A stretch of 64,000 nt of DNA from an uncultured Bacilli bacterium (GTDB taxonomy: Bacteria; Bacillota_I; Bacilli_A; RF39; UBA660). The stretch spans positions 64,105-128,104 of the forward strand of contig CALWAL010000001.1 in assembly GCA_944373145.1 (NCBI GenBank), written 5' to 3'. Below are positions 2,627 through 61,573 of the stretch, piece by piece. Every line of letters starts with the position of its first letter. Position 1 is the first letter of the stretch. The translations under genes were made by a program, and so were the position numbers. The notes beneath the pieces were generated by a model. The model was not told the DNA's origin. It searched no databases and worked only from the letters and a program-made list of their open reading frames with translations.

Positions 2627-3403
2627 TTAAGTATTTTTTTCAACTTTTTTCTTAATTTTAGTATGTAATTTCCAAAATTTTTTATCTTTAATTATTGCTT
2701 CATCTTCATCATCTAGCTCAAAAATACAATCATCATCCGGTTTTCCTTGATATTCTTGTAATAACAAATCATTATTTTTCAAAATATATCTTAATCTTGA
2801 TAAATATAATTTATCTCTTAATAGTGTCGGATCTTCTCTCAATAAATGATTAGTTGCTAAAAGATATTCTAGACTTAATACTAAATCTTCACTTATATCA
2901 AAAGCAAACTCTTCATCATCAATCAGTGTAGAATGTAAAAACAAAATTAAATATTCTAATTCAGCTACTGAACTTAAAAGTAATTCTTCCGATTCTGGAT
3001 TAACAGCATACAAAACATGATGGTGTATTCGCTCCATAAAATTTTCAAAATAAGAATTAATCATTGACGGATATAAAGGATACGGAGGTTTTCCTTTTGA
3101 AACATTTAAAAGAGCAATAATTTCATTACAAAGTTCTACCCTTTCAGAATGTGTATCATCAAAACTAAAACGACATAAATTTAAATATTCATAAATATTA
3201 TTATTAGCTTCAAGTGGTAAAGATGTCTCTTGAGTATAGGCTTTAATTAAATCACGTAACATCTTTAGAAGTTCTACTGAAGTATAATCAATACCTAATT
3301 CTTGAGCCATTCGCAATGTTTCTTTTAAATCTTTTGTTACTAAAATAGTTTTTAGAAACTTCATATAAAAAATAGTCGCATCTTTTTCTTTTAATAAATC
3401 CAT
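2627..3403 (-). CDS. Hypothetical protein.
   Basis: 258-aa ORF with no recognisable motif. Operonic with the next gene downstream of lon. Confidence 0.4.
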   Translation of the reverse strand: MDLLKEKDATIFYMKFLKTILVTKDLKETLRMAQELGIDYTSVELLKMLRDLIKAYTQETSLPLEANNNIYEYLNLCRFSFDDTHSERVELCNEIIALLNVSKGKPPYPLYPSMINSYFENFMERIHHHVLYAVNPESEELLLSSVAELEYLILFLHSTLIDDEEFAFDISEDLVLSLEYLLATNHLLREDPTLLRDKLYLSRLRYILKNNDLLLQEYQGKPDDDCIFELDDEDEAIIKDKKFWKLHTKIKKKVEKNT

Positions 3404-3405
3404 AA

Positions 3406-4137
3406 TTATCCTTTTATTTTCAGATATAATTTTTTATCTTCACGCTTAAATCTTATTTGGCCAAGATAAGTATTTTCATGTGTTAAAGTAAATCTCTTTA
3501 AAGGATTACGATATTTTTTATGCACTGATTCCTTTGCTTCTAATGTTTCTAAAACTCTGTTTTTAAAACTTTCACTTTGCAATATTGACGGATATTTAGT
3601 TGTCAAATATCTAACACTTTCTGCAAATTGTGGCGAAGCTATAAATGGTAATTGACGCTTCTTATATTCTTCATCTGATAACTTGCTATATGTATATAAA
3701 ACACCCAAATCACTAGCTATACTACTTCTAATATCATCAGCCATCAATAAAAGTCTTTCATCAGAATAAAATTTTTTATTGTTTCTTCTTAAAGCTAGTT
3801 CTTGACGATAAAACTGAATGATATTTTTATCTAAGTCTTCTTCATTTAGCATTCTAATAATATCAGGATAAAATTCGTAATGAGCATCTAAACTATAAAA
3901 TGATAAGCCAAATCTATTAATAGAATTGGCATATATATAAATATTACTTTTACTATCTCTAGAAAGATATCCTTTATTTCCATATTCTAGAAAATGCATA
4001 CAAATGTCATTTAGCAAATCTGGTAAAACATCTTCAAAAGTTTTAAATATCTCTTCTAATAGACCTAATAATTCATTAATATTTTTCGTAAACATAATAG
4101 CACGTGCAATAGCCTCACTATAATAATTTTCTTTCAT
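3406..4137 (-). CDS. Hypothetical protein.
   Basis: 243-aa ORF immediately after the lon stop (start overlaps at 4137). Confidence 0.4.
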   Translation of the reverse strand: MKENYYSEAIARAIMFTKNINELLGLLEEIFKTFEDVLPDLLNDICMHFLEYGNKGYLSRDSKSNIYIYANSINRFGLSFYSLDAHYEFYPDIIRMLNEEDLDKNIIQFYRQELALRRNNKKFYSDERLLLMADDIRSSIASDLGVLYTYSKLSDEEYKKRQLPFIASPQFAESVRYLTTKYPSILQSESFKNRVLETLEAKESVHKKYRNPLKRFTLTHENTYLGQIRFKREDKKLYLKIKG

Positions 4138-9976: not shown

Positions 9977-11545
9977 TTATCGACGCCCCTTTTTAATTTC
10001 TTCAACTTCCTCAATTGCTTGTTCCATATCCTCTATGTCTTCTATTTCTTCATTTAAACCGTTTATTTTTTTGCGATGTTTTAAATATTTTACAAAAGCC
10101 ACAAATGAAGTACCCATACCTGCTAATAAGGCAGTGAATTTACCAACATCTGGTAAAATTCCACTTAAACCTAAACTGCCATTACCTAATTGACTTAGTG
10201 CTGTAACACAATTTTTTGAAGCTGTAAGTGGATCAACTTTAAAAATAAGTGCTAAAACTGCAACTGGAATAAATCCTGCTCCAATTAAAAGAAGTGCTAA
10301 AGTCTTTTTCTTTTCTATTTTTTCTACTTCTTTTTCTTTTTTTATAATTTGTAAACGTCTTTGAACTAATTGTGTTGTTTCTTTATCAACCGGATCATGA
10401 GGTTCAATAAAACCATCACCATCTTTATTTAATGACGAAATATCTGGGCTCCGTGGGATTAATTCTTCAATTACTTCCTCCGATTGCGCTGGTTCCTCTA
10501 CATGTAATGTTGAACCGTTTTGATAAAGTTCTAATATCTCATCATATGGCAAATTATAAGCCGGTCTTAAAATATCAAAAGTTCTTTTCAAACATGAAAT
10601 TGGATAATGTAAATCTAAATCCTTTAATTTTTTAACTCGTTCTTCAAGGGAAATATCTTTTATCATTAAAATTTTATAAACCCTTTTTTCATCTTGCTCT
10701 AAGCGGTATAAACTATAAGCAATATCATCCACTTCATCTGCTTTTTTCATCTTATTTAAATAATCAATAATAAATGTTGAATCAAATACATCTTCATCCA
10801 TTAATTTTTGATAAATTGTATGTGCTAATTCTTGATTGTCATCAATACCTTTAAACCTTTCAATAAAAAATGGTTCATATTTTTTATAAAATAAATTAAT
10901 TACTTCATCGATGATTTCTTCATCTAATCCCGAATCATTCAATGCGTAACGTAAATGACCAAAAGATAAAAAGTTTTTTGTATAATAATTGATTAGATCG
11001 TTTGCGACACCTTCAATAATCCTATCTCGATTTGTGCTATTTACATACGAACTAAATCTTGAGGTTGCAACTGAACGATTAATAAAAATTCGATAAAATT
11101 CTTTAACTTTATTACTACTATCTAGAACGCCAGCACTTATGGCTTGTTCAACTCCATTAATAATTTCACTAAAAGGCATTTTCCCTAATTCATACAAACT
11201 TTTAGCAATCTCAAAATCACTCTTATCCTCGCTTTTAGCTTGCTTTAAACAAGCAACTATTTTACTAAGGCGTTGATTTTGCTCTTGTCTTTCTTTATCT
11301 TTTTTTCTTTCTATGGAAGCTTTAGCTGCCAATCTTTGTCGTTCCCTTGCAATAATATAATCGCATATAGCTTTAGGTTCAAATTGTCCACCAGTGGCAA
11401 TATTTAAATTAAATGACTCGGCAATTTTACGAGAAGCATCACGCGAAATCAAAATTCTCCCATCTTCAGCTTTTACAAAATCTTTTTCTGGATTTATATA
11501 TTTAAGCAAAATTTCCTTCTTTTGATCATTTGTTAAATTCATCAT
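9977..11545 (-). CDS. Hypothetical 522-aa protein with a C-terminal hydrophobic hairpin, probably membrane-anchored.
   Basis: Long ORF with a Lys/Glu-rich coiled region and C-terminal TM segments (LALLLIGAGFIPVAVLALIF ... ALLAGMGTSFVAFV). Confidence 0.5.
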   Translation of the reverse strand: MMNLTNDQKKEILLKYINPEKDFVKAEDGRILISRDASRKIAESFNLNIATGGQFEPKAICDYIIARERQRLAAKASIERKKDKERQEQNQRLSKIVACLKQAKSEDKSDFEIAKSLYELGKMPFSEIINGVEQAISAGVLDSSNKVKEFYRIFINRSVATSRFSSYVNSTNRDRIIEGVANDLINYYTKNFLSFGHLRYALNDSGLDEEIIDEVINLFYKKYEPFFIERFKGIDDNQELAHTIYQKLMDEDVFDSTFIIDYLNKMKKADEVDDIAYSLYRLEQDEKRVYKILMIKDISLEERVKKLKDLDLHYPISCLKRTFDILRPAYNLPYDEILELYQNGSTLHVEEPAQSEEVIEELIPRSPDISSLNKDGDGFIEPHDPVDKETTQLVQRRLQIIKKEKEVEKIEKKKTLALLLIGAGFIPVAVLALIFKVDPLTASKNCVTALSQLGNGSLGLSGILPDVGKFTALLAGMGTSFVAFVKYLKHRKKINGLNEEIEDIEDMEQAIEEVEEIKKGRR

Positions 11546-21897: not shown

Positions 21898-22401
21898 CTA
21901 TTCTATACTTTTAGCGTTTAAATTTTCCATCAATTCTTCTTTATACATAAGTCCAGCACGACTAAATACTACATCCCCTTCACTCATAACTAATAAAGTT
22001 GGAATAATAATTTGTGGGTTTTTATAATTCATAACATCCGTTACATCATCTATAACAATGGAATATTGTTCATCATTTAAATCTTGACGATTTAAAATAT
22101 ATACTACAGCTTCACGCTCAGAAAAAGCAATTTTAATTTCTTCTAAAAAAGTTTGACTTATTTCATCTTCTTCATTATAAATCAAAATAGCATAAGTTTC
22201 TGTTTCATATGCCTCTGAACGAAGTTCTAAATATTTGTCATAATCAATATACTCAATAGTTGCTGTTGTTGGTTTAACTTCTTCAACAGCTGGCTCTTTT
22301 TTTTCGTCATCCCGTGCTATAATCAAATATATAATACTTCCTAGTAATACAGTCGTAACAATAAAAAAGATAATTTTATTTCTTAATCTCATCTTAATCA
22401 C
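21898..22401 (-). CDS. Membrane-anchored protein with a thioredoxin-like C-terminal fold that lacks the CxxC motif.
   Basis: N-terminal TM (IIFFIVTTVLLGSIIYLII). C-terminal IIPTLLVMSEGDVVFSRAG resembles the thioredoxin PTLLxFKxGxxV region. No cysteine pair. Confidence 0.4.
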   Translation of the reverse strand: MIKMRLRNKIIFFIVTTVLLGSIIYLIIARDDEKKEPAVEEVKPTTATIEYIDYDKYLELRSEAYETETYAILIYNEEDEISQTFLEEIKIAFSEREAVVYILNRQDLNDEQYSIVIDDVTDVMNYKNPQIIIPTLLVMSEGDVVFSRAGLMYKEELMENLNAKSIE

Positions 22402-22470: not shown

Positions 22471-23463
22471 CTATTTTCCAAAGTTAAAAAATCCTTTTTT
22501 CTTTTTTGGCTTATCTTCTTTTTTTGGTTCTTCTTTAACATCGGGAAGATCAGTTATTTCTACTTCATCAACCTCTTCCTTTTTTGATTTACCTTCTTCA
22601 ATGTTAATTTCGTCTTCTACCGCTTCAAAAGCATCATCTTTTGGTTCATCAATAACCCCCGGGGCCTCAACATCTTCAAAGATTGAATCTTCATTATCTA
22701 AAATAACCATACCATTTTCATCAAATTTAACATCCACATTTTCTTCAACTGCTGTTGATCCTTCTGTTCCATCAGCTACAACAACGCCATTTTCATCGAA
22801 TTGATAATTTTTTAAAGTTTTAGACTCTTTTTTATCTTCAATTACAACACCGTTTTCATCAAAAACATAACGTGGTTCCTCAATTTTATCATTTTGATTA
22901 TTCGTTTCCTTATCGGCCACCACAATACCATTTTCATCAAATTGGTAGTTTCCTGAAGTTTTAGATTCTTTTTTATCTTCAATTACAATACCATTTTTAT
23001 CAAAAACATAACGTGGTTCCTCAACTTTATCATTTTGATTATTCGTTTCCTTATCAGATGCTACGACCTCAGAAGCTAACTTATCAGCTACTACAACACC
23101 GTTTTCATCAAATAAATATCCGCCATTTGCTTTTGGTGATAAAACAACATCAACCGTTTCATCTAACCTATTTTCATTATCAACTTCAGATTTTACGGAC
23201 TTTAACTCTACTGGTAAAGAACTAATAAAAATTTTAGACTCTTCATCTTTATATCCATAAGAATATAATTCAATAATATCGCTATGATTAAAATAATTTA
23301 TATCTTGGTTTTTGCTAAAGCCCTTTGGAAATGGCACACCAATATAATCATATCCTTGATTTTTATAACCTATAATAACTTGTTTATTATTTAAATTTTT
23401 AACAACACACACTGAGCCAAGTGGTAAAAACTTTAACTCCATAATCTCCCTCTTTTCCTTCAC
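22471..23463 (-). CDS. DUF4176-domain protein with about 6 C-terminal FDENGVV repeats.
   Basis: N-terminal FLPLGSVCVVKN...VIIGY...DYIGVPFPKG matches the DUF4176 pattern common in Firmicute T7SS loci. Repeated Y(Q/V)FDENG(V/I)V(V/I)(A/E)D units follow. Confidence 0.6.
   Translation of the reverse strand: MKEKREIMELKFLPLGSVCVVKNLNNKQVIIGYKNQGYDYIGVPFPKGFSKNQDINYFNHSDIIELYSYGYKDEESKIFISSLPVELKSVKSEVDNENRLDETVDVVLSPKANGGYLFDENGVVVADKLASEVVASDKETNNQNDKVEEPRYVFDKNGIVIEDKKESKTSGNYQFDENGIVVADKETNNQNDKIEEPRYVFDENGVVIEDKKESKTLKNYQFDENGVVVADGTEGSTAVEENVDVKFDENGMVILDNEDSIFEDVEAPGVIDEPKDDAFEAVEDEINIEEGKSKKEEVDEVEITDLPDVKEEPKKEDKPKKKKGFFNFGK
22800..23060. repeat. Intragenic tandem direct repeat: two copies of about 140 bp, roughly 90% identical.
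   Basis: Segments near 22818-22915 and 22958-23056 are near-identical (ttttagaCtcttttttatcttcaattacaa...cgtttccttatc). They encode the repeated 47-aa FDENGVV module. Confidence 0.7.
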
Positions 23464-23468
23464 GTTTT

Positions 23469-24008
23469 TTATTCTGCACTTATAACAACACCATTTTCAT
23501 CAAATTTAATATTGCTAAAAATTGGCCAATCTTTTCCTTCTTCAGTCGTTTCTTTTGATATCGATTGTTCATAGTTCATTTCTTTATGAAATGGATTATT
23601 AACTCCACCTACATCATTAGTGCTTATAACCTTCTCTTGAATTGGTTGCTCTTTTTTTTCTGTTTTAGTTGACGGTTGTGCAAAAATTACTACACCGTTT
23701 TCATCAAATTCAAAATTAGTAAAGACATTATTATTTATTGTTTTATTCTCTTGTTGACTATTTAATTTTTTGTTCAATAACTCAAAATCAGCATTTTTAT
23801 AACCCATATACTCAATTGTTAATATGTCTCCATGATTAAAACAAATACGATTTGATCCTAAAGTTCCTTCTGGATAAATACACCCTTGATAATCATATAA
23901 TTTTACTTTTTCTGTATAATCAAGTGCAAAATACCCCATAATCATGACTTTACGATTGCTCGCTTTAATTGTACATATAGAGCCAATAGGCAAAAATTTT
24001 TGATTCAT
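23469..24008 (-). CDS. DUF4176-domain protein (shorter paralog, 2 FDENGVV motifs).
   Basis: FLPIGSICTIK...VMIMGY...YQGCIYPEG N-domain. Start moved to MNQKF, which has an AGGAGA RBS. Confidence 0.6.
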   Translation of the reverse strand: MNQKFLPIGSICTIKASNRKVMIMGYFALDYTEKVKLYDYQGCIYPEGTLGSNRICFNHGDILTIEYMGYKNADFELLNKKLNSQQENKTINNNVFTNFEFDENGVVIFAQPSTKTEKKEQPIQEKVISTNDVGGVNNPFHKEMNYEQSISKETTEEGKDWPIFSNIKFDENGVVISAE

Positions 24009-24115
24009 AACATCTCTCCTACAGTTATTATAAAAATTATATCTAAAAATAATAAAAATTGCAACATATTCATTCAAATGTAACTAAAAAAAGATATAAC
24101 TTTTTAAGTTATACC

Positions 24116-24424
24116 TTAACTAACACTACTACCTCGATCTACAATCTCTTCAATAGCAATCATCGCAAGTGCACTATTAATTTCATCAATAGCTTCATCA
24201 TATTTTCTATTACTTTTATTTAACCAATCACGAATATCAATTAAATTTCTTCGCATTTGATTAATATATTGACAATATTCATTTAAATAGTTTGCATAAC
24301 GAAAATCACCAGGAATAGACATTGTATTATTAACAGAAATTAAATCTTCTAAATTGTCAATCGTTGAATCCAAACTAGGTAATACGTCTCTTGATATATC
24401 AATATTTTTAAAATTCAACTTCAT
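24116..24424 (-). CDS. Small helical T7SS-locus protein of unknown function, possibly a substrate or chaperone.
   Basis: 102 aa, predicted all-helical. Tightly packed (1-nt gap) behind the WXG100 gene. Confidence 0.4.
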   Translation of the reverse strand: MKLNFKNIDISRDVLPSLDSTIDNLEDLISVNNTMSIPGDFRYANYLNEYCQYINQMRRNLIDIRDWLNKSNRKYDEAIDEINSALAMIAIEEIVDRGSSVS

Positions 24425-24712
24425 CTAATCTCTCCTCAATGAATTTATTTCTTTTTCAAAATCATCAGCATCATCTACTAAATGTCTACCCAATTTATAA
24501 ATAGTATCCTTAAATTGAAAATATTGATTTTTTTCAGCATTAGCACGGTTAGCAAACGCTATCGATGCTTCACCAGTCCAAATCTCATGATTAGAAACAT
24601 TTGACAACTTATCAAAAAGAAGTTTAAAATCTTCATTTAGTGATAATGATAATTCCATCATACGATTACCACAATCACGCATTTTTATCGTATCAATTTT
24701 AATTTCTGCCAT
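24425..24712 (-). CDS. WXG100 family protein (EsxA-like).
   Basis: 95 aa. Central W-x-G motif (HEIWTGEASIAF). Helix-turn-helix length typical of WXG100. Confidence 0.75.
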   Translation of the reverse strand: MAEIKIDTIKMRDCGNRMMELSLSLNEDFKLLFDKLSNVSNHEIWTGEASIAFANRANAEKNQYFQFKDTIYKLGRHLVDDADDFEKEINSLRRD

Positions 24713-24721
24713 ATTTCCTCC

Positions 24722-24766
24722 CGATAAAAATTTTAGCTAACAACTGTTAGCTAAAATCTATTTAAT
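24722..24766 (-). terminator. Palindromic hairpin between T7SS small genes; possibly an intra-operon attenuator or terminator.
   Basis: TTTTAGCTAACA-AC-TGTTAGCTAAAA, an 8-bp stem flanked by T and A runs. Confidence 0.35.
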
Positions 24767-25090
24767 TTAATCTTCTTTAGCAGCTTCAGCTAAAGCCCTT
24801 TCTTCATCCTCTATAGCCCTTAAAATGCTATTAATTTTTTGATTAATTGCACTCATAACTTCTGAGGAAAGGAAGTTTTTTTTATCAATACAAGTAGTAC
24901 GCGCCTTTTTTAATTTATAATTATCGGCACTTACTTCATCAATTAGATAATAATCACTAACTTTTAAAGCTCTTTCAGAACTATCTATTACCCGCTCCAA
25001 ATGACGTATTGAATTTTGAACATCATCAGATAAATCGCGATAAGTACGTAATTGTCGATATAAACTTGAAAGGCTTGCCATTATTACCAC
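24767..25090 (-). CDS. Small helical protein (T7SS-associated, unknown function).
   Basis: 107 aa, coiled-coil-like. No WXG motif. Confidence 0.4.
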   Translation of the reverse strand: MVIMASLSSLYRQLRTYRDLSDDVQNSIRHLERVIDSSERALKVSDYYLIDEVSADNYKLKKARTTCIDKKNFLSSEVMSAINQKINSILRAIEDEERALAEAAKED

Positions 25091-25101
25091 CTAATTTCTA
25101 A

Positions 25102-25578
25102 TTATCTTTGTCTTGCGTATCTATCAACAGATTGAGATACTTCTTGACCAGCTGTATTTAAAGTATCGTTCATTGCTGCTTGTTGAGCTTCATAATTATC
25201 TTTAATTTCCATTAAAATATCGGCTAATTTTAATAATTGAGATGTGTAGGCACGACATGCATCCATTACACCACCAATATAAGCTTTACAAGCTTGTTGC
25301 ATACCTGGATCTGCAAATGCCTTACTTGGGTCTGTGTTAACATTTACTTCATTTAAATGATTTTCAATTGCTGCAACAGCACTATCAATTGCTGTTGTCA
25401 TATCGTTAATTTTATTTACATTAATTCCCACAACACTTCCTGGAATCAAAGAACCGATAGCTGCACTAGCTTGACTTTTAATACTATTAAAAGTATTTGA
25501 AATTGCATCAAGTGCATCATTAGCTCTAGCGCCAACCATAGAAGTGAATTGAAGGACCTCTGATTTAATTGTTGCCAT
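25102..25578 (-). CDS. Helical 158-aa protein, possibly EsxB/LXG-like or an atypical WXG100 relative.
   Basis: Ala/Ser/Asn-rich helical sequence. Immediately downstream of a WXG100 gene. Confidence 0.35.
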   Translation of the reverse strand: MATIKSEVLQFTSMVGARANDALDAISNTFNSIKSQASAAIGSLIPGSVVGINVNKINDMTTAIDSAVAAIENHLNEVNVNTDPSKAFADPGMQQACKAYIGGVMDACRAYTSQLLKLADILMEIKDNYEAQQAAMNDTLNTAGQEVSQSVDRYARQR

Positions 25579-25593
25579 TATTTATTCTCCTTC

Positions 25594-25926
25594 CTAAAAT
25601 ATAGATTGGCCACTAATTTCTTCAGCCATTCCAGTGTCTTCTGAATGATAAGTTTCTTCTTGAGCCGCAAGTGTAGCGTTAAAAACTTCTTCCATTTCTT
25701 GAAGTTTAGCTTTTAATGCTTCTGCTGATTCTGATAATTTAGCACAAAATGCATCGCATGCTTGTCCTTGCCATCCTTGTTGTAACGTATCCTTAATAAT
25801 TTCCGTTTGGTCTGTTATAATTCCATTTGTTTCAATAATTGCTGCTGTATTTAGCTCTGCAACATAAGCAGCTGCTCCAGTGGAACTATATCCAATAGTA
25901 ATATCCTCTATTCCTAATCCTCCCAT
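25594..25926 (-). CDS. WXG100 family protein.
   Basis: 110 aa. W-x-G motif (QQGWQGQACDAF). Helical hairpin length. Confidence 0.7.
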   Translation of the reverse strand: MGGLGIEDITIGYSSTGAAAYVAELNTAAIIETNGIITDQTEIIKDTLQQGWQGQACDAFCAKLSESAEALKAKLQEMEEVFNATLAAQEETYHSEDTGMAEEISGQSIF

Positions 25927-25939
25927 AAATTCACCTCCA

Positions 25940-26299
25940 TTAATATTTTTCCTTATATCTCTCTATGGAATTAGATAAGATCTCACCTTTAGCTATTGTA
26001 AAGTTCTTCTTTACAGTATTGTGAACACCATATATACGAGCTTTAACTTTAACTAAATCTTGAGAATAACACAAGATATTTTTATTAACAATTGGAAAAC
26101 TTTGGCGCAACTTGGCAAAAGAATTTCGAAAGTTTGTGCCACATTCACATTCATAAAAAGAAACAGTTCCGTCAACTAAATCTTCAAGTTCTAAAAATTG
26201 AGCTTTAATACGTTCTGCAATCTCTCCAATCTCTAAAACTAAATTATCTAGCTTAGGTTCATTAATTCCAAAAACTTCCTGTTGCTTCACTCTCGCCAC
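25940..26299 (-). CDS. Hypothetical 119-aa protein (T7SS-locus).
   Basis: ORF carrying a CECG motif. No recognisable family. Confidence 0.35.
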   Translation of the reverse strand: MARVKQQEVFGINEPKLDNLVLEIGEIAERIKAQFLELEDLVDGTVSFYECECGTNFRNSFAKLRQSFPIVNKNILCYSQDLVKVKARIYGVHNTVKKNFTIAKGEILSNSIERYKEKY

Positions 26300-26357
26300 T
26301 CCTATCCTATGCTAATCTAATATCTTTACTTAAGTATACCGATTTTTACTTAATAAA

Positions 26358-28079
26358 TCAATATATTTTTTCATTTTGTTTAAGTTTAATATACTCATTA
26401 ATTGAAATCGTCTTATTGCGACTAGTTGTATCATGTTTTTCCTGGATAATTACACCCATATCATCATTTACCCAAGGTATTTCAATAGCGTCATATACTG
26501 TTTCATTTAAAATATTATTAGTCTTTATTTCCATTTTACCATTAAAAGCATTATACGCTGCTTCTATATCATCAATTGATAATCCCAATTCATTAGCTAG
26601 CACTTGGAAAAAAGCACTTTGAATATTTTGATAATAATCTAAAAATGGTTTAATAGTGTCATAACGCGATTCATCTGTATATAGAATATGTGTACTCAAT
26701 GTAGATTCAAGCGTTGATATAAGTTCAAAAACATCTTCTAATTTAACCGATTGACTAGACATCTTACTAATTAAATTATCGTAAAAAGTTCTACTGAAAT
26801 ATTTAGATAAACCTACTTTTAATTCAATTTTTAATTGAACTAATTCCTCATCGCTCATTTCATGTCCTAAGATTTCTTTTTCATACAAACTCATAAAATC
26901 ATTAGGTTCTACTTGAATAATATTAATTGCATATAACACTTTTAAAAGTTCCATTTTCTCTTCTTCTGTATTACAATTAAAAGCCTCGAATAATTTAGAA
27001 ACATCATTTTGAACAGAAATTTGTTCTAATGAATTAACATCAAAATTATCATTTAAGCCATGAACAAATTTCAAAGTGTTTAAGTAACTTATATAATTAG
27101 CGTACGTCGTTGGATCGCTATCGTGTAATTTAGCAGCTAAATTTTCGGCAGCCGCTTCCTCAAACCACCTATTGTAAAGCGAATTTACTTCTAAATCATC
27201 AAATTCATAACAAAAACCATAAGCGGATTTAACGCCTACTTGATCACGATGTTCTGTAGATAATCGTTGAAATAGATGTACTGTCTCGTGGGATAATGTT
27301 ATTAATCCTGCATTTTCATTATTACTGATTGACACCATCATATCTAAATTAGATGGCATAACTGTCATGCAACCATCATCAGTAATTGAAGCATTGGCTC
27401 CTGTCGCTGATTTAAACATACATAAATGTTGAAGATTATAGCTTAAATCTTCTAAATTATAATCCCAACCTTTATTCAACATATCATTTACTGTATCAGC
27501 AATTACTTGGCAATATTCGGCGATATAATTTTTGTCTAGTTCAGTATAAATAGAATATGGATTTTTATCTTTATAAGCTACATTATTTTTTATTACTAAA
27601 TCATATAACTGTTGAGCATCAACATACCCATTAGCCATGATGGGTTGAATAATTCCATCATAAGCAGGAATTTGTAAATATCTTTGATATGCTGTTTCAA
27701 CATCATATAAATCACTATAAGCATAATCAATAGGAATTTGTATAATTTCATTAATTAGCTGTTCAGAAGCACTGTTTGATATGGTTACGCTACTATCAAT
27801 AATGGTTTGATTATAATCATCTATTTCCTTTATCTCATAATCTTCTAGCATTTTTTCAATTTCTAATTCCAAATCGCTTTTTTCTTCCACTACTTCTACA
27901 TAAGTAGGCTGATTAACTTGCGTTTCTGTATTATGCTTAGGGACAATACTGCATGCTGTAAATAATGTTGAAATTGTTAGTGCACCAGTAATAATATATA
28001 ATTTAAATTTATTTTTTTTCGTTCTTTTTTTAGTTTCTTTTCTCTTCAATCTTTCAAATACTTTTAAATTTTTTAACAT
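26358..28079 (-). CDS. Lipoprotein with an HExxH zinc-metallopeptidase-like motif.
   Basis: Lipobox LFTAC after a basic N-terminus. LSHETVHLFQ (HExxH) with a downstream EEAAAE. Confidence 0.5.
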   Translation of the reverse strand: MLKNLKVFERLKRKETKKRTKKNKFKLYIITGALTISTLFTACSIVPKHNTETQVNQPTYVEVVEEKSDLELEIEKMLEDYEIKEIDDYNQTIIDSSVTISNSASEQLINEIIQIPIDYAYSDLYDVETAYQRYLQIPAYDGIIQPIMANGYVDAQQLYDLVIKNNVAYKDKNPYSIYTELDKNYIAEYCQVIADTVNDMLNKGWDYNLEDLSYNLQHLCMFKSATGANASITDDGCMTVMPSNLDMMVSISNNENAGLITLSHETVHLFQRLSTEHRDQVGVKSAYGFCYEFDDLEVNSLYNRWFEEAAAENLAAKLHDSDPTTYANYISYLNTLKFVHGLNDNFDVNSLEQISVQNDVSKLFEAFNCNTEEEKMELLKVLYAINIIQVEPNDFMSLYEKEILGHEMSDEELVQLKIELKVGLSKYFSRTFYDNLISKMSSQSVKLEDVFELISTLESTLSTHILYTDESRYDTIKPFLDYYQNIQSAFFQVLANELGLSIDDIEAAYNAFNGKMEIKTNNILNETVYDAIEIPWVNDDMGVIIQEKHDTTSRNKTISINEYIKLKQNEKIY

Positions 28080-28112
28080 GACAACTCTCCTATCTAAAAA
28101 TATTATATCATC

Positions 28113-28148
28113 AAAAAAAAGAAGCGCAAAATAAATTTACACTTCTTT
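28113..28148 (-). terminator. Rho-independent terminator after the esaB-like gene.
   Basis: AAGAAGTG-loop-CGCTTCTT hairpin followed by T8 on the minus strand. Confidence 0.55.
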
Positions 28149-28401
28149 ACAATAGCACTACACTCGTACCATTACGAATATTTGTATCACGTACCAACGT
28201 ATCAATAGGATAAATTTCACCGTTATTTCGGTCATATAAGTAAGTACGATTAGTTCCTATAAAAGAGCCATTTGTTATTTCATATAAAGATTTATTTAAA
28301 AGATTAATAATATTTCCTATTTTACGATTAACTGGGAAGTAAACATTATAAGTTTGATCAATAGCTGGAACAATTAGTTCTACTAAAACTTTATTTTTCA
28401 T
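28147..28401 (-). CDS. esaB: YukD/EsaB-like ubiquitin-fold T7SS protein.
   Basis: About 84 aa (MKNKVLVELIV...YNVYFP...NGTSVVLL), matching the YukD beta-grasp pattern. GGAGG RBS. The start overlaps the essC stop. Confidence 0.7.
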   Translation of the reverse strand: MKNKVLVELIVPAIDQTYNVYFPVNRKIGNIINLLNKSLYEITNGSFIGTNRTYLYDRNNGEIYPIDTLVRDTNIRNGTSVVLL

Positions 28402-31400
28402 CGTTTCCCTCCTCCACATCTTCAACCATATAACGAATTGTTGTATGTTTTCCACGACTAATAGCAAATCCCATATAAGGGAAATTAGTTTTTCCATCTT
28501 CAGCTGTTATAGTTGATGTATTAATAGCTAATTGCGTTGCAACTCCTTCATCTAACCAAATACCATAAGCTGTATCAATATTAGTTTGATACCAAGGTTC
28601 TGTTTGTAATATTTTGTAAGCTGAATAGCTATCAAAGAAAACATAATAACTATTATTAATAACCGATGAATTGTTAAAAAGACTATTTAAAACGACTCGA
28701 CCATTTGCTGATAATTTTACTTTCATCTCTGATATACCAATAAATATATTTAAAGTTCTTACTTCTTTATCCTTAGCTTTAATAATATCATTATTTAACT
28801 TAATTATTTCACTATCATAGTTATTTTGAATATAATTCACATTGTCAATTCTTTTACTTAAAATGGCTGCAAAATCAATAACATTAATTTTTAAATTATC
28901 AATAAGTGATACCATTTTAATAAAAGTACTTAAGAAACTAAATTTATTATCATCAAATTTATTAAACAAAATAGGAATAAACTTGCTAGCCGTTAAATCA
29001 TAAGCATATGGAGTTTTAGATTCAACTGCATAGCCAATTGGAACATTTGTTAAATCATTTAAGTTATCTTTAACAGAACTAAAATAAACAACTTCTGGTA
29101 CCATTGGAATTTTTTTAGCTCGTACATTATAAGCTTGACTCAACTTTTTAGCTGTATCACGAACCAAATTATTTATTTCTTTTTTTGTTGTAATCAAGGC
29201 TGTTTGAAATTCATATGCCTTACTATCTTTAGCAACTAAACCACGTCCAAAATATTTAGTTGGTAATTGTCCTTTGATAGCACCAACTAAATTACGATAT
29301 TCTGTTTCATTTGGAATTTGCAGACATAATTTATGGCTAAAATTTTGCAACATTCTTAATTTAACTGTACTAGTTGAAATAGACGTAATGATAAATGATA
29401 TTCCATATTTATTGCCATCACGATAAAATGTTTGAATTGATTCAGCTACTCGAGCATAATTTTCTGAAAATATTTCATAATTGTTAATGATAGTAACTAT
29501 TAAAGGTAATTTATTACCGCTATTTTCAATATATTCTTTATAACTACCGCCATAATCAGCCATTAATTCTTTACGACGTTCAATTTCCTCATCAATCATC
29601 ATTAAAATACCCAAAATTTTATCTTGTTCTTCAGTCGTAGCAATTTCTCCTATATGTGGCATTTTATTGAAAGTTTTTAAAGCCTCCGAACCACAGTCAA
29701 TAACATAAAAATTAATCTCATCTGGTGTATGTTCCAAAGAAGCTGACCACAAAATAGTCTGAACAAGATTTTCTTTACCAGCACCAGGTTGTCCCCAAAT
29801 AATAGCATTACCGTTCATTAAATCTAAAGTTAAAATACCTTGTTCTTGTTGTGATGGATTATCATATTCACCAATAACAGGATTAATATGATATGGCGTT
29901 GGTTTATAATGATATTTTTTCTTAATCTCATCTACAAATATTTCTTCTGGAATAGGATCTAGCCAAAGCGTACTTGTCTTCAAATTTTCTTTTTTACCTA
30001 AGTTATAAATATATTTAACGATATTTGTTAATTGATCCCCATAATTAGTATTATCTGTTTCAATTTTAATTAAATCTTTAATGCTTTTTGTAACATTTCC
30101 AACATTATCTATAAAATCTATTGAATCATCAATTTTCTTAATTACTCGATCAGATGGAACATATTTTGCCCCAGCCCATCCTGATTGACCTTTAGCAAAA
30201 TAATCATCATAACCAACTTGCAAATAAAAGCGCCCTGTTTCTTTAATACTAGCCGCTTCTGGGCGTTTTAACATTTCCATACTATCAGCTCGATCTTGAA
30301 CTTTTAAGCATACTTTAAATTTTGAATTACTCCAAATTTGATCATTAACTACACCACTAGGTTTTTGTGTTGCCAAAATAAGATGTACTCCTAATGAACG
30401 ACCGATACGAGCCGTTTGAATCAATTGTTGCATGAATTCAGGTTGTTGGCTTTTTAACTCGGCAAATTCATCACTAATAATAAATAAATGTGCCATTGGC
30501 TCTTTTACTTGACCTTCACGATATAACCGTTGATATTTATAAATGTCGATGGTTGATTCACCTAAAACATCACGAGTTTCATTAAAAATACGTTGCCGTC
30601 TTTTTAATTCTGACTCAATTGAAACTAAAGTTCTATTCATTGAAGCTGTATCTAGATTAGTAATCGTCCCAGCTAAATGAGGAATACGAACACCTAACTC
30701 CTTATTTTCAAATGCTCCAGCCAAGCCACCACCTTTATAGTCAATAAGAACGAATTGTACTTCATATGGATGATAATTAACACACATTGATAAAATATAT
30801 GTAATAATAAATTCTGACTTACCACTACCAGTTGAGCCAGCAATTAAACCATGTGGTCCATGAAATTTTTCGTGAAGATTTAATTTAAACTGTTCACCAC
30901 TTGCGTGAACACCAATCGTTGTATTTAAACTGTTAACAGGATTATTAGTCTGCCAACGATTTAAAACATTTAATTGTTCAATTTTAGAAACATTAAGCAT
31001 TTCCAAAAATGAAATAGAGTTAGGCAAAACGGATATTCCTTCTTTACTTAATAAAGGAATATTATTAACTTTTTGACAAAGATATTCCATATCAGCATTG
31101 TCCAAATATTCTGTTTTAAAAACAATCTGATTACTAGAATTTATATTACTCTCTAAAATACAACCTTCATTATCACCTATCTCAATGAATGACTCGCATT
31201 TAGCCGGTAAATTCTTCATTGTACTTGAAAAAATAGCAATACTAAATCCATAATTGGTATCAGCATATTTCAAAATATTACTAATGATTGGAGCTTCATC
31301 ACTACTCTTATAATCATCGCAAATAATTAAATAATATGGTAAAAAGTTTTTATATTCATCAGTTTTTTTTATGTCTTCAGCTTCACTTTTATCTTTTACT

Positions 31401-33007
31401 TTATTTTCTAATAAATCTTTACGAGTTTTAAATTCACTCTCCAAAAAAGATGAAACTTCTTTTATTTCTTCTGCATTCGTAGCAAAAAAGCGTAAACTTT
31501 TGTCATCATTAAAACAGTATGGTGAATACTTTAAATAGTTCCAACGCGATTGATTTTTTTCATTAGTTAAAATAACTATTTTTAGATCGCCACCACTATG
31601 AAGCGCTAAAAGTTGAACCATCAAACCATTAATATAATCGTTTTTACGATTAGCACTACAAATAAAGGCTGAAATTTTTTTATCGATCAAAGAAATATTA
31701 ATAGGAACATCGACTAATTTTTTATGACGATCGACAATTGTATAAACTCGTTTTAATAAATCATCATCATCTAAAGTAAACTTTTCCTTAGGTGCCACAA
31801 TATGCAATGGAGTGTTAACACTTCCTAATCCTAAGCGCAATTTCAAAAAATCATCATCAGATATGTTCCTTCCCCAAAAATTACGATTATTAACAGAGTT
31901 TATAACGTTAACGCAACCATTAGCGGTTAAACTGTTATCGCGCATAATTTGGGCCTGTTTTTTCATAATCATTATAATTTTTTCTTCTTTTTCATCTAAA
32001 TAATCGTTGTATTTACGAATGCGAAGTTCTTCTCTTTCTGCTCTTTTCTTTTTATGGTAAGCTGATGCCATTTTAGGAATAATTAAACTTCCAACAATCA
32101 TTGCAATACATAAGACAATTTGCGGCAAAGCCGACATGATGGTTCTTGTCCCTGTCATCAATCCGTAACCAACATTATATCCCATAACAAGTGAAGAGGC
32201 TCCCATCGTAATACTACTACCGATTGTCAACCAAAACGGTGTATCTTCTTCTTTTTCGGAAGCTGGTGGAGCATCTATTTCCAATTCTTCTTCTTCAACT
32301 ACTTCTCTAATTCTTGGTGTATGAAAAAAATAATCATCGTCGTCATATAAATCCATTGATTGCTGTTCATCACTAACTGGAGTATATTCTTGATTAGTTT
32401 GAGCAGGTTGATAAGTATAAGCATTCAAGCCTGCCACTGTTACCAATTTATTTGGATTATTAATTTGAATAAAATGTTGCATCCAAACAATTTTTAAACC
32501 TTTAATAAAAATTGTATCTCCGGCATGTAAAACTGCTTTTGTAACGCGATTGCCATTTAAATAAGTAGCATCATTAGCGTTTATAAACCAATTTTGACCT
32601 TCATATGTAATAAGTGCATGACTAGATGCAATGTTATTATTATGGTAACAAATATTGCAATTATTTTCTTTACCTATTAAAAGTTGTTTTAGGCCTTTAA
32701 ATTCTAATTTATAAGTTTCAACCTCAACAGTAGGTAGTGCATATAATACAATATTTTCTTGGCTAGAAACAACTTTCAAGTCATAAGAACCATAATCAAT
32801 TAAAGATGCTTCGTCCGAAAATGTAGAATTGTTTACAACATCAACACTACCATTGCTTTTAATTTTCCACTTACCTTGATCAGCTTCAAACGATAAAATA
32901 CAATCTTTACCCTTGCTCGTTTTATGGTTAACAACGAAAGAATCTTCAATCTTTGAAGGCAATTCATATTTAAATATTTTATCTTCTTCAACTAAAAATA
33001 TTCGCAT
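28391..33007 (-). CDS. essC: Type VII secretion FtsK/SpoIIIE-family ATPase EssC.
   Basis: About 1538 aa. N-terminal tandem FHA-like region. TM segments (ITMGASSLVMGY..., IVLCIAMIVGSLIIP). Three P-loop domains (GSTGSGKSE; GQPGAGKEN; a third degenerate). Start set at the ATG with 8-nt spacing from AGGAG. Confidence 0.88.
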   Translation of the reverse strand: MRIFLVEEDKIFKYELPSKIEDSFVVNHKTSKGKDCILSFEADQGKWKIKSNGSVDVVNNSTFSDEASLIDYGSYDLKVVSSQENIVLYALPTVEVETYKLEFKGLKQLLIGKENNCNICYHNNNIASSHALITYEGQNWFINANDATYLNGNRVTKAVLHAGDTIFIKGLKIVWMQHFIQINNPNKLVTVAGLNAYTYQPAQTNQEYTPVSDEQQSMDLYDDDDYFFHTPRIREVVEEEELEIDAPPASEKEEDTPFWLTIGSSITMGASSLVMGYNVGYGLMTGTRTIMSALPQIVLCIAMIVGSLIIPKMASAYHKKKRAEREELRIRKYNDYLDEKEEKIIMIMKKQAQIMRDNSLTANGCVNVINSVNNRNFWGRNISDDDFLKLRLGLGSVNTPLHIVAPKEKFTLDDDDLLKRVYTIVDRHKKLVDVPINISLIDKKISAFICSANRKNDYINGLMVQLLALHSGGDLKIVILTNEKNQSRWNYLKYSPYCFNDDKSLRFFATNAEEIKEVSSFLESEFKTRKDLLENKVKDKSEAEDIKKTDEYKNFLPYYLIICDDYKSSDEAPIISNILKYADTNYGFSIAIFSSTMKNLPAKCESFIEIGDNEGCILESNINSSNQIVFKTEYLDNADMEYLCQKVNNIPLLSKEGISVLPNSISFLEMLNVSKIEQLNVLNRWQTNNPVNSLNTTIGVHASGEQFKLNLHEKFHGPHGLIAGSTGSGKSEFIITYILSMCVNYHPYEVQFVLIDYKGGGLAGAFENKELGVRIPHLAGTITNLDTASMNRTLVSIESELKRRQRIFNETRDVLGESTIDIYKYQRLYREGQVKEPMAHLFIISDEFAELKSQQPEFMQQLIQTARIGRSLGVHLILATQKPSGVVNDQIWSNSKFKVCLKVQDRADSMEMLKRPEAASIKETGRFYLQVGYDDYFAKGQSGWAGAKYVPSDRVIKKIDDSIDFIDNVGNVTKSIKDLIKIETDNTNYGDQLTNIVKYIYNLGKKENLKTSTLWLDPIPEEIFVDEIKKKYHYKPTPYHINPVIGEYDNPSQQEQGILTLDLMNGNAIIWGQPGAGKENLVQTILWSASLEHTPDEINFYVIDCGSEALKTFNKMPHIGEIATTEEQDKILGILMMIDEEIERRKELMADYGGSYKEYIENSGNKLPLIVTIINNYEIFSENYARVAESIQTFYRDGNKYGISFIITSISTSTVKLRMLQNFSHKLCLQIPNETEYRNLVGAIKGQLPTKYFGRGLVAKDSKAYEFQTALITTKKEINNLVRDTAKKLSQAYNVRAKKIPMVPEVVYFSSVKDNLNDLTNVPIGYAVESKTPYAYDLTASKFIPILFNKFDDNKFSFLSTFIKMVSLIDNLKINVIDFAAILSKRIDNVNYIQNNYDSEIIKLNNDIIKAKDKEVRTLNIFIGISEMKVKLSANGRVVLNSLFNNSSVINNSYYVFFDSYSAYKILQTEPWYQTNIDTAYGIWLDEGVATQLAINTSTITAEDGKTNFPYMGFAISRGKHTTIRYMVEDVEEGNDEK

Positions 33008-33118
33008 ACACACAACTCCTACTATTCTTCTATTATATATAACATATTATATCGAACTTTTTGGACTTTTACAATACATTATTCTTGCGGCAAAAACTAT
33101 TTAATGATATAGTAATTA

Positions 33119-45611: not shown

Positions 45612-45978
45612 AACAATAACATTTCATAAGCCATGTTCTGTACCTATAAGGTGGCAAACATTTATCTACCAATTGCTTGGTCCCTAACTTAGTTCAATTT
45701 CCTTGTTAAAGCTCCCCTACCAAAATTTGGGTTTCTCGCTCGTGGGGTTTACCGCGTTCCACTTATTCTATTTCTAAAATATATCGTCACTATGGCACTT
45801 TTATACCTAATATAACCATATCATAAAGACTTAGGTTACCTCGGAGCCGTTAGCAAATGCTACTAAAGGTTATTTTTTCCCTTTACACGAACACTACAAA
45901 CATCGCAGTTTGTGCGAGCATGGACTTTCCTCTATATATCTATATGTAAATATACAGCGTTTGCCGAAATATTATTCT
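45612..45978 (-). ncRNA. rnpB: RNase P RNA, type B.
   Basis: The reverse complement contains AGAGGAAAGTCCATGCTCGCAC and GTGGAACGCGGTAAACCCCACGAGCGAGAAACCCAAATTTTGGTAGGGGA. Both are near-identical to B. subtilis rnpB. A P1 pairing between AAUAUUUCG (5') and UGAAAUGUU (3') defines the ends. Confidence 0.9.
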
Positions 45979-52003: not shown

Positions 52004-52831
52004 CTAAAATTTAATTAATAATCTTTGTCCTGCTTTAATTAAATTAGGATTATCTCCAATAATATCTTTATTTTCTTCATATAAATCTTTCCAATATACT
52101 TTATACTTCATCGCTATATCCCATAAAGTATCTCCTTTTTGAACTATATAATATTTATTATCATTGCTTAATATTTCATTAACCAAATCTTGTATCTCAT
52201 TATAATTATATCCTGCTTCTTCTAACCTTTTCTTTCGCATATTTCCATTATCCCATTTTCCTTGAATAACTTCCTTAGCAATTTCATTATTAGATTTTTT
52301 TAAATTATTACTTTTTTCTTCATAGATTTTCCATTCATATGAATTTTTAGATACTTTCACATCTGGATGTAAAAATAACGCTTTAGTTATATCATATTGA
52401 TTATTAATAAGCCAAGCATATGCTTTTACTTTTGGTTGATACTTTCCTTTATACCAACCAATTCCTTTAAATCTTCCTTTTCCTACTGCAATATGAATGT
52501 GACTACCAGTTACATTACCTTTTACTCCAGGTTGATAGTATATTTCACTTTGCTTTATCTTTTTATTAATGTATAAATCTGATACATCATTATCATGTAA
52601 TGTCATAATAGTCATATAATCAATTGTTCCATCAGCATATTCTACTTTATTTAAACTCTCTAACCATATGCCATTACAATTACTATATTTTCTTTTTATT
52701 TTACCAGTAAACGGAGCTTTTAAATATTTTAGTTTTGATATATCAATAGCTAAATCACCATTATGAGAAAAATTGCTATTCATATTTTGACTAATATATA
52801 AAACATCTACATTAAGTATAGCTTTCTCCAT
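52004..52831 (-). CDS. Peptidoglycan hydrolase: M23-like endopeptidase domain plus C-terminal LysM (endolysin-like).
   Basis: SHNGDLAID ... TGSHIHIA align with the M23 HxxxD ... HxH motifs (compare lysostaphin HYGVD ... HLHF). C-terminal LysM (YIVQKGDTLWDIAMKY...AGQRLLI). No signal peptide. Confidence 0.6.
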   Translation of the reverse strand: MEKAILNVDVLYISQNMNSNFSHNGDLAIDISKLKYLKAPFTGKIKRKYSNCNGIWLESLNKVEYADGTIDYMTIMTLHDNDVSDLYINKKIKQSEIYYQPGVKGNVTGSHIHIAVGKGRFKGIGWYKGKYQPKVKAYAWLINNQYDITKALFLHPDVKVSKNSYEWKIYEEKSNNLKKSNNEIAKEVIQGKWDNGNMRKKRLEEAGYNYNEIQDLVNEILSNDNKYYIVQKGDTLWDIAMKYKVYWKDLYEENKDIIGDNPNLIKAGQRLLIKF

Positions 52832-53024
52832 TTAACTTCTCCTGTATTAAATTTAAAACTGCACTTATTCCCATAGCAATCGCACCTACCATCATAGATT
52901 TAACTAGATCAAAATTAGATAAATCTGTAGTTGGTAAAACAACAATGATGCTTGCGATGAAGCCTTCTATAAATGTTTTAAGCACTTTGCCAAGTAACTT
53001 GTCGTTCAATATTTTCTTTAACAT
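52812..53024 (-). CDS. Holin-like small membrane protein (phiLC3-type topology).
   Basis: 70 aa. Basic N-terminus, two hydrophobic helices separated by a PTTDLSNF turn, polar C-terminus. Overlaps the lysin gene start. Confidence 0.5.
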   Translation of the reverse strand: MLKKILNDKLLGKVLKTFIEGFIASIIVVLPTTDLSNFDLVKSMMVGAIAMGISAVLNLIQEKLNGESYT

Positions 53025-53391
53025 CTTCTACCTCCTTTAACTCACTAGGTAATTTATATAATTCATCAACCATATTTTTAGCAAATATATCACCTTCAAA
53101 GTGTTGATAATTCCTATAAATTTCACTAATATTATCTTTCATATAATTAGGACAGTATCCTAATTCCATATATTTTTCATATATTCTAATAATTTCATTT
53201 TTTAGTAATGCTTTTAAGCCATTTTTTAAACTCATATAACCTTTTAACATATAAGCTACACTAGAACTTATAATTGTAAAAAGTATCTCTAACCAATACT
53301 TTAAAATAAACTCAATCATATATATCACCTCTTCAAGATAAAAATGGAGATATCGCTTGATATCTCCGAAATAAAACCTAAAAATTTTCAT
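52978..53391 (-). CDS. Small membrane protein of phage-lysis-cassette type (XhlA/BhlA-like?). The true start is probably the internal MIEFILKY.
   Basis: N-terminal TM (WLEILFTIISSSVAYML) followed by a charged helical tail. Sits directly upstream of the holin-like gene. Confidence 0.35.
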   Translation of the reverse strand: MKIFRFYFGDIKRYLHFYLEEVIYMIEFILKYWLEILFTIISSSVAYMLKGYMSLKNGLKALLKNEIIRIYEKYMELGYCPNYMKDNISEIYRNYQHFEGDIFAKNMVDELYKLPSELKEVEDVKENIERQVTWQSA

Positions 53392-53821: not shown

Positions 53822-53842
53822 TGAATCACCCTTGAATAATTT

Positions 53843-59995: not shown

Positions 59996-60015
59996 AGTCT
60001 ACCTCCTAGTCAATT

Positions 60016-61191: not shown

Positions 61192-61573
61192 TTGTTTTTC
61201 CCTCCTTATTAATCAAAAATTTCTTCACTTCACAATTAAGCGGTTGATAGCTAATCAACTCCATAGGGATTCCACCTTCTTGAGTTTCACAAGACTACTA
61301 GAATAGAAGTATCATTATTGCTATTGTTTGTTATCGCATTATTAATAGCTACTTAATATTTATAACCAAGTATTAATCGCAAGCGTACTTGTTAACGTGC
61401 TAGAACAATAGGAATGTACTTAATTGTGTATATTAAATTGTCAAAGAGCATATATAGAGAAGGAATCTTTTATCAATAGTCACTTTAAATGAATAATCAA
61501 AATATAAAAAAAGGTATATAGTGATAATTTTATTCCTTCACTATATACCTCACTAAAAAGCTAAAAGTATAGT

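Follow-up and report, generated by a model that had tools for sequence, protein, structure and literature searches.

This article concerns a run of 11 consecutive genes in a 64,000-nucleotide stretch of DNA, which we call the window, from an uncultured Bacilli bacterium (contig CALWAL010000001.1). We read these genes as a complete and self-contained type VII secretion system (T7SS) of variant form, one that does without the membrane partners of T7SSb and without the accessory proteins of subtypes T7SSc to T7SSj, and that has as its signature a lipoprotein with an HExxH motif. We put the probability of this reading at about three in four. A first-pass annotation of the window had suggested a reduced or divergent T7SS, and the suggestion has lasted well: EssC, a YukD-like protein and WXG100 proteins are retained, while EssB, EsaA and EssA are absent, both in cis and next to the copies of this module in 12 or more other species.

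What the minimal secretion machine is, and what EssA, EssB and EsaA contribute to EssC, is an open question for T7SSs. That a T7SS can exist without these three proteins is already published. Garrett, Higginson and Palmer described eight subtypes, T7SSc to T7SSj, beyond T7SSa and T7SSb (Microlife 2024; PMC11217815). None of the eight has EssA, EssB or EsaA; all have TsxC, TsxA is identifiable in all but T7SSi, and TsxB occurs in most. The arrangement with a zincin-like lipoprotein, on the other hand, appears to be undescribed. An HExxH lipoprotein is listed for none of the published subtypes (PMC11217815), and in the literature we found neither a paper pairing EssC with HExxH nor a 'T7SSk' or later subtype name. 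The 2024 catalogue was built from RefSeq only (PMC11217815), which explains how it would pass over a variant that uncultured bacteria alone possess.

The motor and its small partners

The largest protein of the locus is an EssC (TsxC in the newer naming) with an FHA N-terminus, as the first-pass annotation had it. It scores 951 bits against the Firmicute EssC model TIGR03928 (cutoff 778), has an FHA domain (PF00498) at residues 112-168 (E = 4e-9), matches the FtsK_SpoIIIE domain PF01580 at E = 2e-46 and has two transmembrane helices at about residues 256-312. The same annotation had counted three ATPase domains. Visible in the protein are a single canonical Walker A motif, GSTGSGKS at residue 724, and a variant one, GQPGAGKE at residue 1072; the P-loop of the third domain is degenerate. 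The start codon on record is an ATG at 33007; exact look-up of the protein read from a GTG at 33013 gave zero matches.

It had also been allowed that the large ATPase might group with conjugative, FtsK-like translocases. It does not. Against solved structures EssC scores 397 bits with Bacillus subtilis YukB and 201 with actinobacterial EccC, versus 49 with FtsK, and the FtsK model returns 56 bits versus the 951 of the EssC model. These scores rule out an FtsK-like translocase; judged by its sequence, the ATPase is grouped with those of T7SSs and apart from the DNA translocases. In an N-terminus alignment of loci L005 to L044 (the L numbers are our labels for related EssC loci), the phosphothreonine-binding motifs (GR...SxxH...S.NGT) are degenerate in the window EssC clade and in other minimal 'Bacilli' clades, and are retained in most EssCs that share their locus with a gene for a Ser/Thr kinase, a PP2C phosphatase or both. 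The degenerate motif in the window clade agrees with a locus that encodes neither kinase nor phosphatase.

The gene after essC encodes the 84-residue TsxB. The window protein itself has no Pfam or NCBIfam match, and it is the family that speaks for its identity. Our scan for EssC in one genome per species produced 41 related loci, all from metagenome-assembled genomes (MAGs) apart from one isolate, Ectobacillus ponti (L020). TsxB family members lie directly after, occasionally before, EssC in 32 of the 41, and eight of 20 members match Pfam YukD weakly. A family profile run against PDB sequences gave no YukD match. Structure prediction on database homologues, followed by fold comparison, gives TsxB a predicted ubiquitin-like fold of the YukD/EccD type; its C-terminus ends in VVLL, with no Gly-Gly. 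The YukD/EsaB-like call of the first-pass annotation is thus good at the level of the family and the predicted fold, but the window protein falls below the Pfam threshold. That annotation also had the two genes translationally coupled. They overlap by 11 nt, which makes the coupling plausible.

After tsxB come the lipoprotein gene and then six small genes, p119, WXGa, h158, p107, WXGb and p102. By sequence comparison two of the six products are assigned to the WXG100 proteins and two more are WXG100/LXG-like. The W-x-G motif is invariant in alignments of the WXGa family and nearly invariant in those of WXGb. WXGa has sub-cutoff matches to PF06013 (E = 2.7e-3) and TIGR03930 (E = 1.4e-3), and its family profile matches Staphylococcus aureus EsxA at 9e-4. 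At its C-terminus is a conserved Y/W-x-x-x-D (YHSED), presumably akin to the general T7 export signal. WXGb also has a sub-cutoff match to TIGR03930 (E = 4.4e-4), and its profile matches EsxA/EsxB of group B Streptococcus (GBS), Geobacillus, Bacillus anthracis and S. aureus over their full length, with E from 4e-4. The two WXG100 genes named in the first-pass annotation are therefore backed by the conserved W-x-G and by profile matches to solved EsxA and EsxB, but not by the window proteins alone, which miss the Pfam and TIGR thresholds.

As for the remaining four, PF06013 is matched by eight of 13 p119 orthologues (best 4.4e-5), the p119 profile has a match to PDB entry 4lws (3.7e-4) and a weak one to B. 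anthracis EsxB, and hhalign gives p119 85% with WXGb and 94% with h158. Two of 14 h158 orthologues match PF04740 (LXG) and two of 14 PF10824 (EspC), the L054 orthologue being LXG (weak); the h158 profile has no PDB sequence match. For p107 there was no Pfam match and for p102 no meaningful one, and against PDB the profiles of both gave coiled-coil noise only.

Two DUF4176 genes close the locus. Their products match PF13780 (cutoff 25) at 67.1 bits (E = 1.4e-18) for the shorter and 59.9 bits (E = 2.5e-16) for the longer. DUF4176 proteins are toxin chaperones (PMC12482557), and those described in the literature are small proteins, unlike the long-tailed pair of the window. The tails of this pair, and of the DUF4176 proteins of L010, L011, L012 and L030, are long and acidic, with one to five copies of [YF]xFDENG[VI]V. 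The motif contains YxxxE, and it resembles the hairpin core of cell-wall-binding repeats. Together the genes supply the generic core of a T7SS: a membrane ATPase of the EccC/EssC type, WXG100 proteins and a ubiquitin-fold protein without Gly-Gly.

Absent partners and a conserved module

In T7SSb as described, the genes for EssA, EssB and EsaA adjoin essC (PMC11217815). Here they do not. Pfam and NCBIfam scans found no YukC/EssB (PF10140), EsaA or EssA in the window, in agreement with the first-pass annotation, which had left room for them just outside it; nor did the scans find any in the 10 kb beyond each end, for a total of about 84 kb. The scans took in the locus proteins, the remaining unassigned open reading frames (ORFs) of the window, precomputed Pfam tables of identical contigs and the 10-kb flanks. 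Outside them was a single stretch, 11.9-18.4 kb of the window, where the genes for DnaJ, PepF, DnaK, GrpE and HrcA were recognized by eye. The same scans gave no Ser/Thr kinase, PPM phosphatase, stand-alone FHA, DUF6382-FHA, Ig-like, EspG-like, vWA or AAA+ protein near the locus, and no relaxase or conjugation genes in the window or its flanks. Such proteins are within reach of the method: the Pfam scans did find a kinase, a DUF6382+FHA protein and a Big_2 lipoprotein in related Clostridia loci, L019 for example. The PP2C phosphatase of the Clostridia loci was recognized by eye from the sequence.

Within the module, transmembrane helices are predicted for EssC and for the signal/anchor segment of the lipoprotein, and for none of the other proteins. 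Two candidates for an overlooked component were rejected. A hidden EssA-like small ORF has little room, the intergenic gaps being below about 110 bp by the gene coordinates, although no separate ORF search was run. A 167-aa transmembrane protein at 21898-22401 moves with the downstream Tex gene and is present in just four loci.

The module is a unit in other genomes too. The closest EssC loci belong to MAGs of mouse, rabbit and Hadza human gut that bear the label 'uncultured Bacilli bacterium', with a best identity of 59%. The order EssC-TsxB-LP573-p119-WXGa-h158-p107-WXGb-p102-DUF4176 (one to two copies), in which LP573 is the lipoprotein, is intact in L005-L009, L011, L012, L014, L028, L030 and L035. 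The flanking genes of these loci differ and their EssC identities are 53-59%. Two further EssCs, that of L010 and the second of L013, have the same small genes as the module and no LP573. In a neighbor-joining tree of the 41 EssCs the module-bearing ones form one clade. The synteny comparison with related genomes that the first-pass annotation had proposed thus gives a conserved gene order with no EssB-, EsaA- or EssA-like neighbors.

Loci beyond this clade are arranged differently. Other 'Bacilli' MAG loci are equally minimal, being either TsxB-WXG-WXG-DUF4176-EssC or versions with cell-wall-hydrolase LXG-like proteins. The Clostridia loci have the Ser/Thr kinase, PP2C phosphatase, DUF6382+FHA protein and Big_2 lipoprotein, and match the descriptions of T7SSe and T7SSj. 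One rabbit-gut MAG, CANQON01, has three EssC genes. Its L006 is a full LP573-type locus. Its L013, on another contig, is a tandem essC pair: the first essC closes a minimal unit of the order TsxB-WXG-WXG-DUF4176-EssC, and after the second come TsxB and the six small genes as an inverted block, without LP573. Neighboring minimal clades also have proteins of 420-574 aa with a helical N-terminal part, at L021:7460-9184 (family f83, also in L039) and L033:6899-8161 (family f12). The f12 C-terminus has a cell-wall-hydrolase domain (PF07486, weak), and that of f83, which has no Pfam match, is glucosaminidase-like by eye. Both families probably consist of peptidoglycan hydrolases exported by the T7 route. 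Cargo of this type is not found in the window locus.

How does the locus compare with the known forms? With T7SSb, the Ess system of S. aureus and the Yuk/Yue system of B. subtilis, it shares an EssC whose FHA region lacks phosphothreonine-binding residues (for T7SSb, PMC11217815), a separate small ubiquitin-fold EsaB/YukD, WXG100s, DUF4176 chaperone-like genes and a Bacillota host. Unlike T7SSb, it has no EssB/YukC, EsaA/YueB or EssA with essC or within about 40 kb, two non-identical WXG100s (one with the YxxxD-type signal) in place of one homodimeric EsxA, an HExxH lipoprotein, and no LXG toxin-immunity pairs. T7SSg resembles it in being a very small set, with two different WXG100s, TsxB, TsxC and one extra protein. 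That extra protein, however, is a DUF5050 beta-propeller and not a zincin-like lipoprotein, its ATPase TsgC lacks the FHA found here, and T7SSg, unlike the window locus, adjoins Tad pilus genes in Acetivibrio and Paenibacillus. With T7SSe and T7SSj, represented by loci such as L019, L031 and L036, the shared features are an FHA-EssC, a TsxB that comes directly after it and a pair of WXG100 genes. The EssCs of such loci are 36-40% identical to that of the window, and, unlike the window locus, they add a Ser/Thr kinase, PP2C, DUF6382-FHA, a large Ig-like lipoprotein and intact FHA residues.

T7SSc, g and h have an ATPase without FHA (PMC11217815); the window EssC has one, and the locus has no vWA, EspG-like or DUF5050 propeller protein. 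T7SSe, f and j encode a kinase, a phosphatase or a DUF6382-FHA protein (PMC11217815), none of which was found in the window, where the FHA motif of EssC is degenerate. T7SSd is actinobacterial and lacks TsxB, and T7SSi has EspG-like and LytR-like proteins (PMC11217815).

The lipoprotein and the competing readings

Neither Pfam nor NCBIfam has a match for LP573, no source gives it a name, and cluster look-ups yielded neither names nor accessions. Its HExxH motif occupies residues 264-268, and H264, E265, H268, E308 and E312 are invariant in ten sequences, down to 29% identity. The N-terminus is a hydrophobic segment ending in a lipobox-like ...FTAC, and in most family members a long basic N-region comes first, followed by a hydrophobic segment and the lipobox Cys (...[LTIF][STALFG][AGS]C, by pattern only). 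This makes LP573 an extracytoplasmic lipoprotein; a few members lack the lipobox Cys and are transmembrane-anchored instead. We interpret LP573 as a putative peptidase, its core zincin-like but divergent and its helical C-terminal domain novel. The HExxH lipoprotein noted in the first-pass annotation is confirmed. The idea that it stands in for the missing membrane parts finds no support in its extracytoplasmic, lipid-anchored topology, nor in the two basal relatives without LP573. LP573 is unlike EssB, EsaA or YueB in topology and fold.

The family is large. With clustering at 50% identity, full HMMER found 438 representatives, of which 324 reach E < 1e-30; a word-indexed protein search badly underestimates it, at 13 matches. 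Four divergent members (P0012, P0204, P0094 and P0150) lie on informative contigs, and all four are in the order EssC, 84-aa gene, lipoprotein, six small genes, DUF4176. The contig of a fifth, P0013, is truncated upstream and uninformative on EssC linkage. No member with a fully sequenced context was found to lack EssC. For LP573, EssC and TsxB alike, nothing could be learned from the variation inside clusters at 90% identity.

Two extracytoplasmic hydrolases encoded in T7SS loci offer a comparison. MycP of T7SSa and EssH of S. aureus work outside the membrane, where they affect substrates, the stability of the complex or the cell wall; the former is a subtilisin-like serine protease with a C-terminal transmembrane helix, the latter a CHAP peptidoglycan hydrolase. 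The comparison with LP573, lipid-anchored and HExxH zincin-like, is one of analogy only, there being no relation in sequence or fold.

A fuller proposal, which we offer tentatively and at somewhat less than even odds, is that this is an eleventh T7SS subtype, widespread among uncultured gut Bacilli, in which EssC would be the sole integral membrane part, EssC and TsxB would make up the minimal machine, and the zincin lipoprotein would be a working part that processes exported WXG100/LXG-like proteins or the wall, convergent with the mycosin of T7SSa. As to the complete-variant reading, the analysis establishes gene identities, folds, conservation, linkage and the absence of the canonical parts in cis, and we infer each step of the mechanism. 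EssC, the only protein of the module whose membrane-spanning helices would persist after processing, would oligomerize into both channel and motor. TsxB would bind the cytoplasmic part of EssC and stabilize the assembly, as YukD stabilizes that of YukB (bioRxiv 10.1101/2025.01.24.634720). WXGa, bearing the YxxxD-type C-terminal signal, would pair with WXGb, dock on the C-terminal ATPase domain and be exported, probably together with p119, h158, p107 and p102, and the DUF4176 proteins would act as cytoplasmic chaperones. LP573 would be exported by Sec, lipid-anchored on the outer face of the membrane and, once there, would process substrates or open the cell wall, a functional analogue of MycP or EssH and not a replacement for EssB or EsaA.

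The alternative we take most seriously places LP573 outside the machine altogether, as an independent Sec-exported factor (a protease effector, or a niche, immunity or maturation factor) merely co-transcribed with T7SS substrates. This is quite possible, though we would bet against it. LP573 has its own lipoprotein signal, it is the first gene of the second transcription unit, after a terminator-like hairpin, and it evolves much faster than EssC, with identities of 22-42% versus 53-59% across the same loci; its absence from the two basal loci also suits this idea. Its constant position between tsxB and the helical genes does not: the position is kept wherever the context is informative, in members as divergent as about 25-29% identity, and no family member parts from EssC, with the truncated P0013 as the possible exception. 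Membership of a named subtype, most plausibly g, f or i, with specific components variable or diverged beyond recognition, we consider unlikely. The resemblance to T7SSg is real, and the component lists of subtypes f to j are uncertain, with few genomes available (PMC11217815). Yet the FHA of the window EssC sets it apart from T7SSc, g and h, the T7SSe/j-type loci from the same search form a separate EssC clade, no published subtype lists the lipoprotein, and AAA+/TadZ and LytR proteins are missing along with the accessory proteins already listed. Still more doubtful is an ordinary T7SSb with a split locus, its EssA, EssB and EsaA genes elsewhere in the chromosome. The inspected 84 kb belong to a contig of roughly 200 kb, and EssC, with its TIGR03928 score, its YukB likeness and its degenerate FHA, would sit comfortably in T7SSb; but such a split departs from the described T7SSb gene order, the module is kept as a unit amid differing neighbors in at least 12 species, and the rest of the EssC loci in this MAG group are just as minimal. 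A decaying remnant, or a conjugative or DNA-translocating FtsK-like ATPase, we find barely credible. The third P-loop is degenerate and toxin cargo is not recognizable; on the other side, each of the 11 ORFs is intact and keeps its place from species to species, with identities of 22-59%, the bit scores favor EssC, WXG100 and YukD-like partners are present, and nothing conjugative lies nearby.

Several points do weigh against our own reading of the locus as a complete variant T7SS. The WXG100 and YukD matches of the window proteins themselves lie below curated thresholds, and no toxin-like cargo is recognizable in the locus. The scans reach about 84 kb, and homologues of EssB, EsaA and EssA could lie elsewhere in the genome. 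L010 and the second EssC of L013, which are basal, lack LP573 and show no remnant of it; because of this, LP573 may be an accessory part or effector and not a component of the machine. The variant is set apart from T7SSc to T7SSj by component lists and domain features, rather than by a tree with the published TsxC references. Finally, secretion by the locus is predicted from its genes.

If the complete-variant reading holds, a module in which EssC is apparently the sole membrane-spanning protein is a compact candidate for reconstitution and structural work. Judged from the size of the LP573 family, the module is present in hundreds of divergent lineages. Its tight linkage to an unnamed HExxH family suggests that an extracellular protease step, known for MycP, may have arisen independently in Bacillota. 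The 2024 subtype catalogue of RefSeq isolates is extended to uncultured bacteria from the guts of mice, rabbits, ruminants and humans. The hosts being uncultured, functional work needs heterologous expression.

Layout of the locus and its surroundings

Gene calls are from the ORF listing of the window and from the calls on record for identical metagenome contigs. Every gene in the list of the first-pass annotation was found in its place and on the minus strand, with all 11 ORFs intact (Table 1).

Table 1. Coordinates of the T7SS-like locus within the window
Feature	Position	Strand	Basis
Whole locus, 11 consecutive genes	22471-33007	minus	ORF listing and gene calls on record
EssC/TsxC motor ATPase, 1538 aa	28391..33007	-	TIGR03928, PF00498, PF01580
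TsxB, 84-aa predicted ubiquitin-fold YukD/EsaB-like protein	28147..28401	-	family-level YukD matches and predicted fold
Putative terminator-like hairpin (13-bp stem and T-run) between essC-tsxB unit and second unit	28118..28148	-	consensus scan only
LP573, 573-aa HExxH lipoprotein or N-terminally anchored extracytoplasmic protein	26358..28079	-	alignment and lipobox pattern
p119 (116 aa as called), helical and WXG100-like, lacking a WXG motif	25940..26290	-	orthologue PF06013, PDB profile, hhalign
WXGa, 110-aa WXG100 protein, W52-x-G54	25594..25926	-	PF06013/TIGR03930 sub-cutoff, alignment, EsxA profile match
h158, 158-aa helical protein, LXG/EspC-like (WXG superfamily), no toxin domain	25102..25578	-	hhalign, orthologue Pfam matches
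p107 (104 aa as called), small helical protein	24767..25081	-	synteny, 14 loci
WXGb, 95-aa WXG100 protein, W45-x-G47	24425..24712	-	TIGR03930 sub-cutoff, alignment, EsxA/EsxB profile matches
p102, small helical protein; start codon directly abuts WXGb stop codon	24116..24424	-	synteny, 14 loci
DUF4176 protein, 179 aa as called, FDENGVV motif in C-terminal tail	23469..24008	-	PF13780
DUF4176 protein, 323 aa as called, acidic tail, five [YF]xFDENG[VI]V repeats	22471..23442	-	PF13780

The terminator that the first-pass annotation had placed after the YukD-like gene is there, as the putative hairpin in Table 1. The 'strong terminator' it had seen at the end of the locus is weaker than that, an AT-rich 8-bp hairpin with a T-tract at about 22470-22445, read from the sequence. 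A perfect 12-bp palindrome (ATTTTAGCTAAC AACT GTTAGCTAAAAT) lies at 24730-24757, inside the 54-bp gap between p107 and WXGb. It could be an internal RNA hairpin setting unequal transcript levels along the operon.

The flanks are housekeeping genes: Tex and hrcA-grpE-dnaK downstream, and a divergent SufC/SufD-like pair and a P-type ATPase upstream. The first-pass annotation had spoken of a low-GC sporulating lineage. The window is about 28% G+C, and the host lineage encodes SpoIVA, so it is plausibly spore-forming. A class B RNase P RNA at 45622-45972 (minus strand, 290 bits) fits a Bacillota host. Elsewhere among housekeeping genes, on the minus strand, are two adjacent proteins of 258 and 243 aa without Pfam match (2627-4137) and a 522-aa protein, also without Pfam match, with C-terminal hydrophobic segments (9977-11545).

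A polymorphic-toxin island occupies 52004-62032 of the window on the minus strand and continues at L046:3278-9318. Its core is a 2050-aa RHS/YD protein (53843-59995, PF05593). We considered this protein as an obvious T7SS cargo and rejected it, the N-terminus being non-helical by eye and the island separate and phage-like. Upstream, the RHS gene is accompanied by genes for a Gp10_C baseplate-like protein (60016-61191) and a sigma-70 region-4 protein and by a pemK RNA motif (61261-61318). On its downstream side lie small genes that are candidates for immunity, along with a 70-aa protein resembling a holin and a CW_7+LysM lysin. An orphan RHS tip of 293 aa follows just past the window, as does a protein of 85-113 aa in three copies. 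The island sits between engB-iPGM and spoIVA, and at this same site the related MAG loci L016 and L018 have a second minimal T7SS, of the order TsxB-WXG-WXG-DUF4176-EssC.

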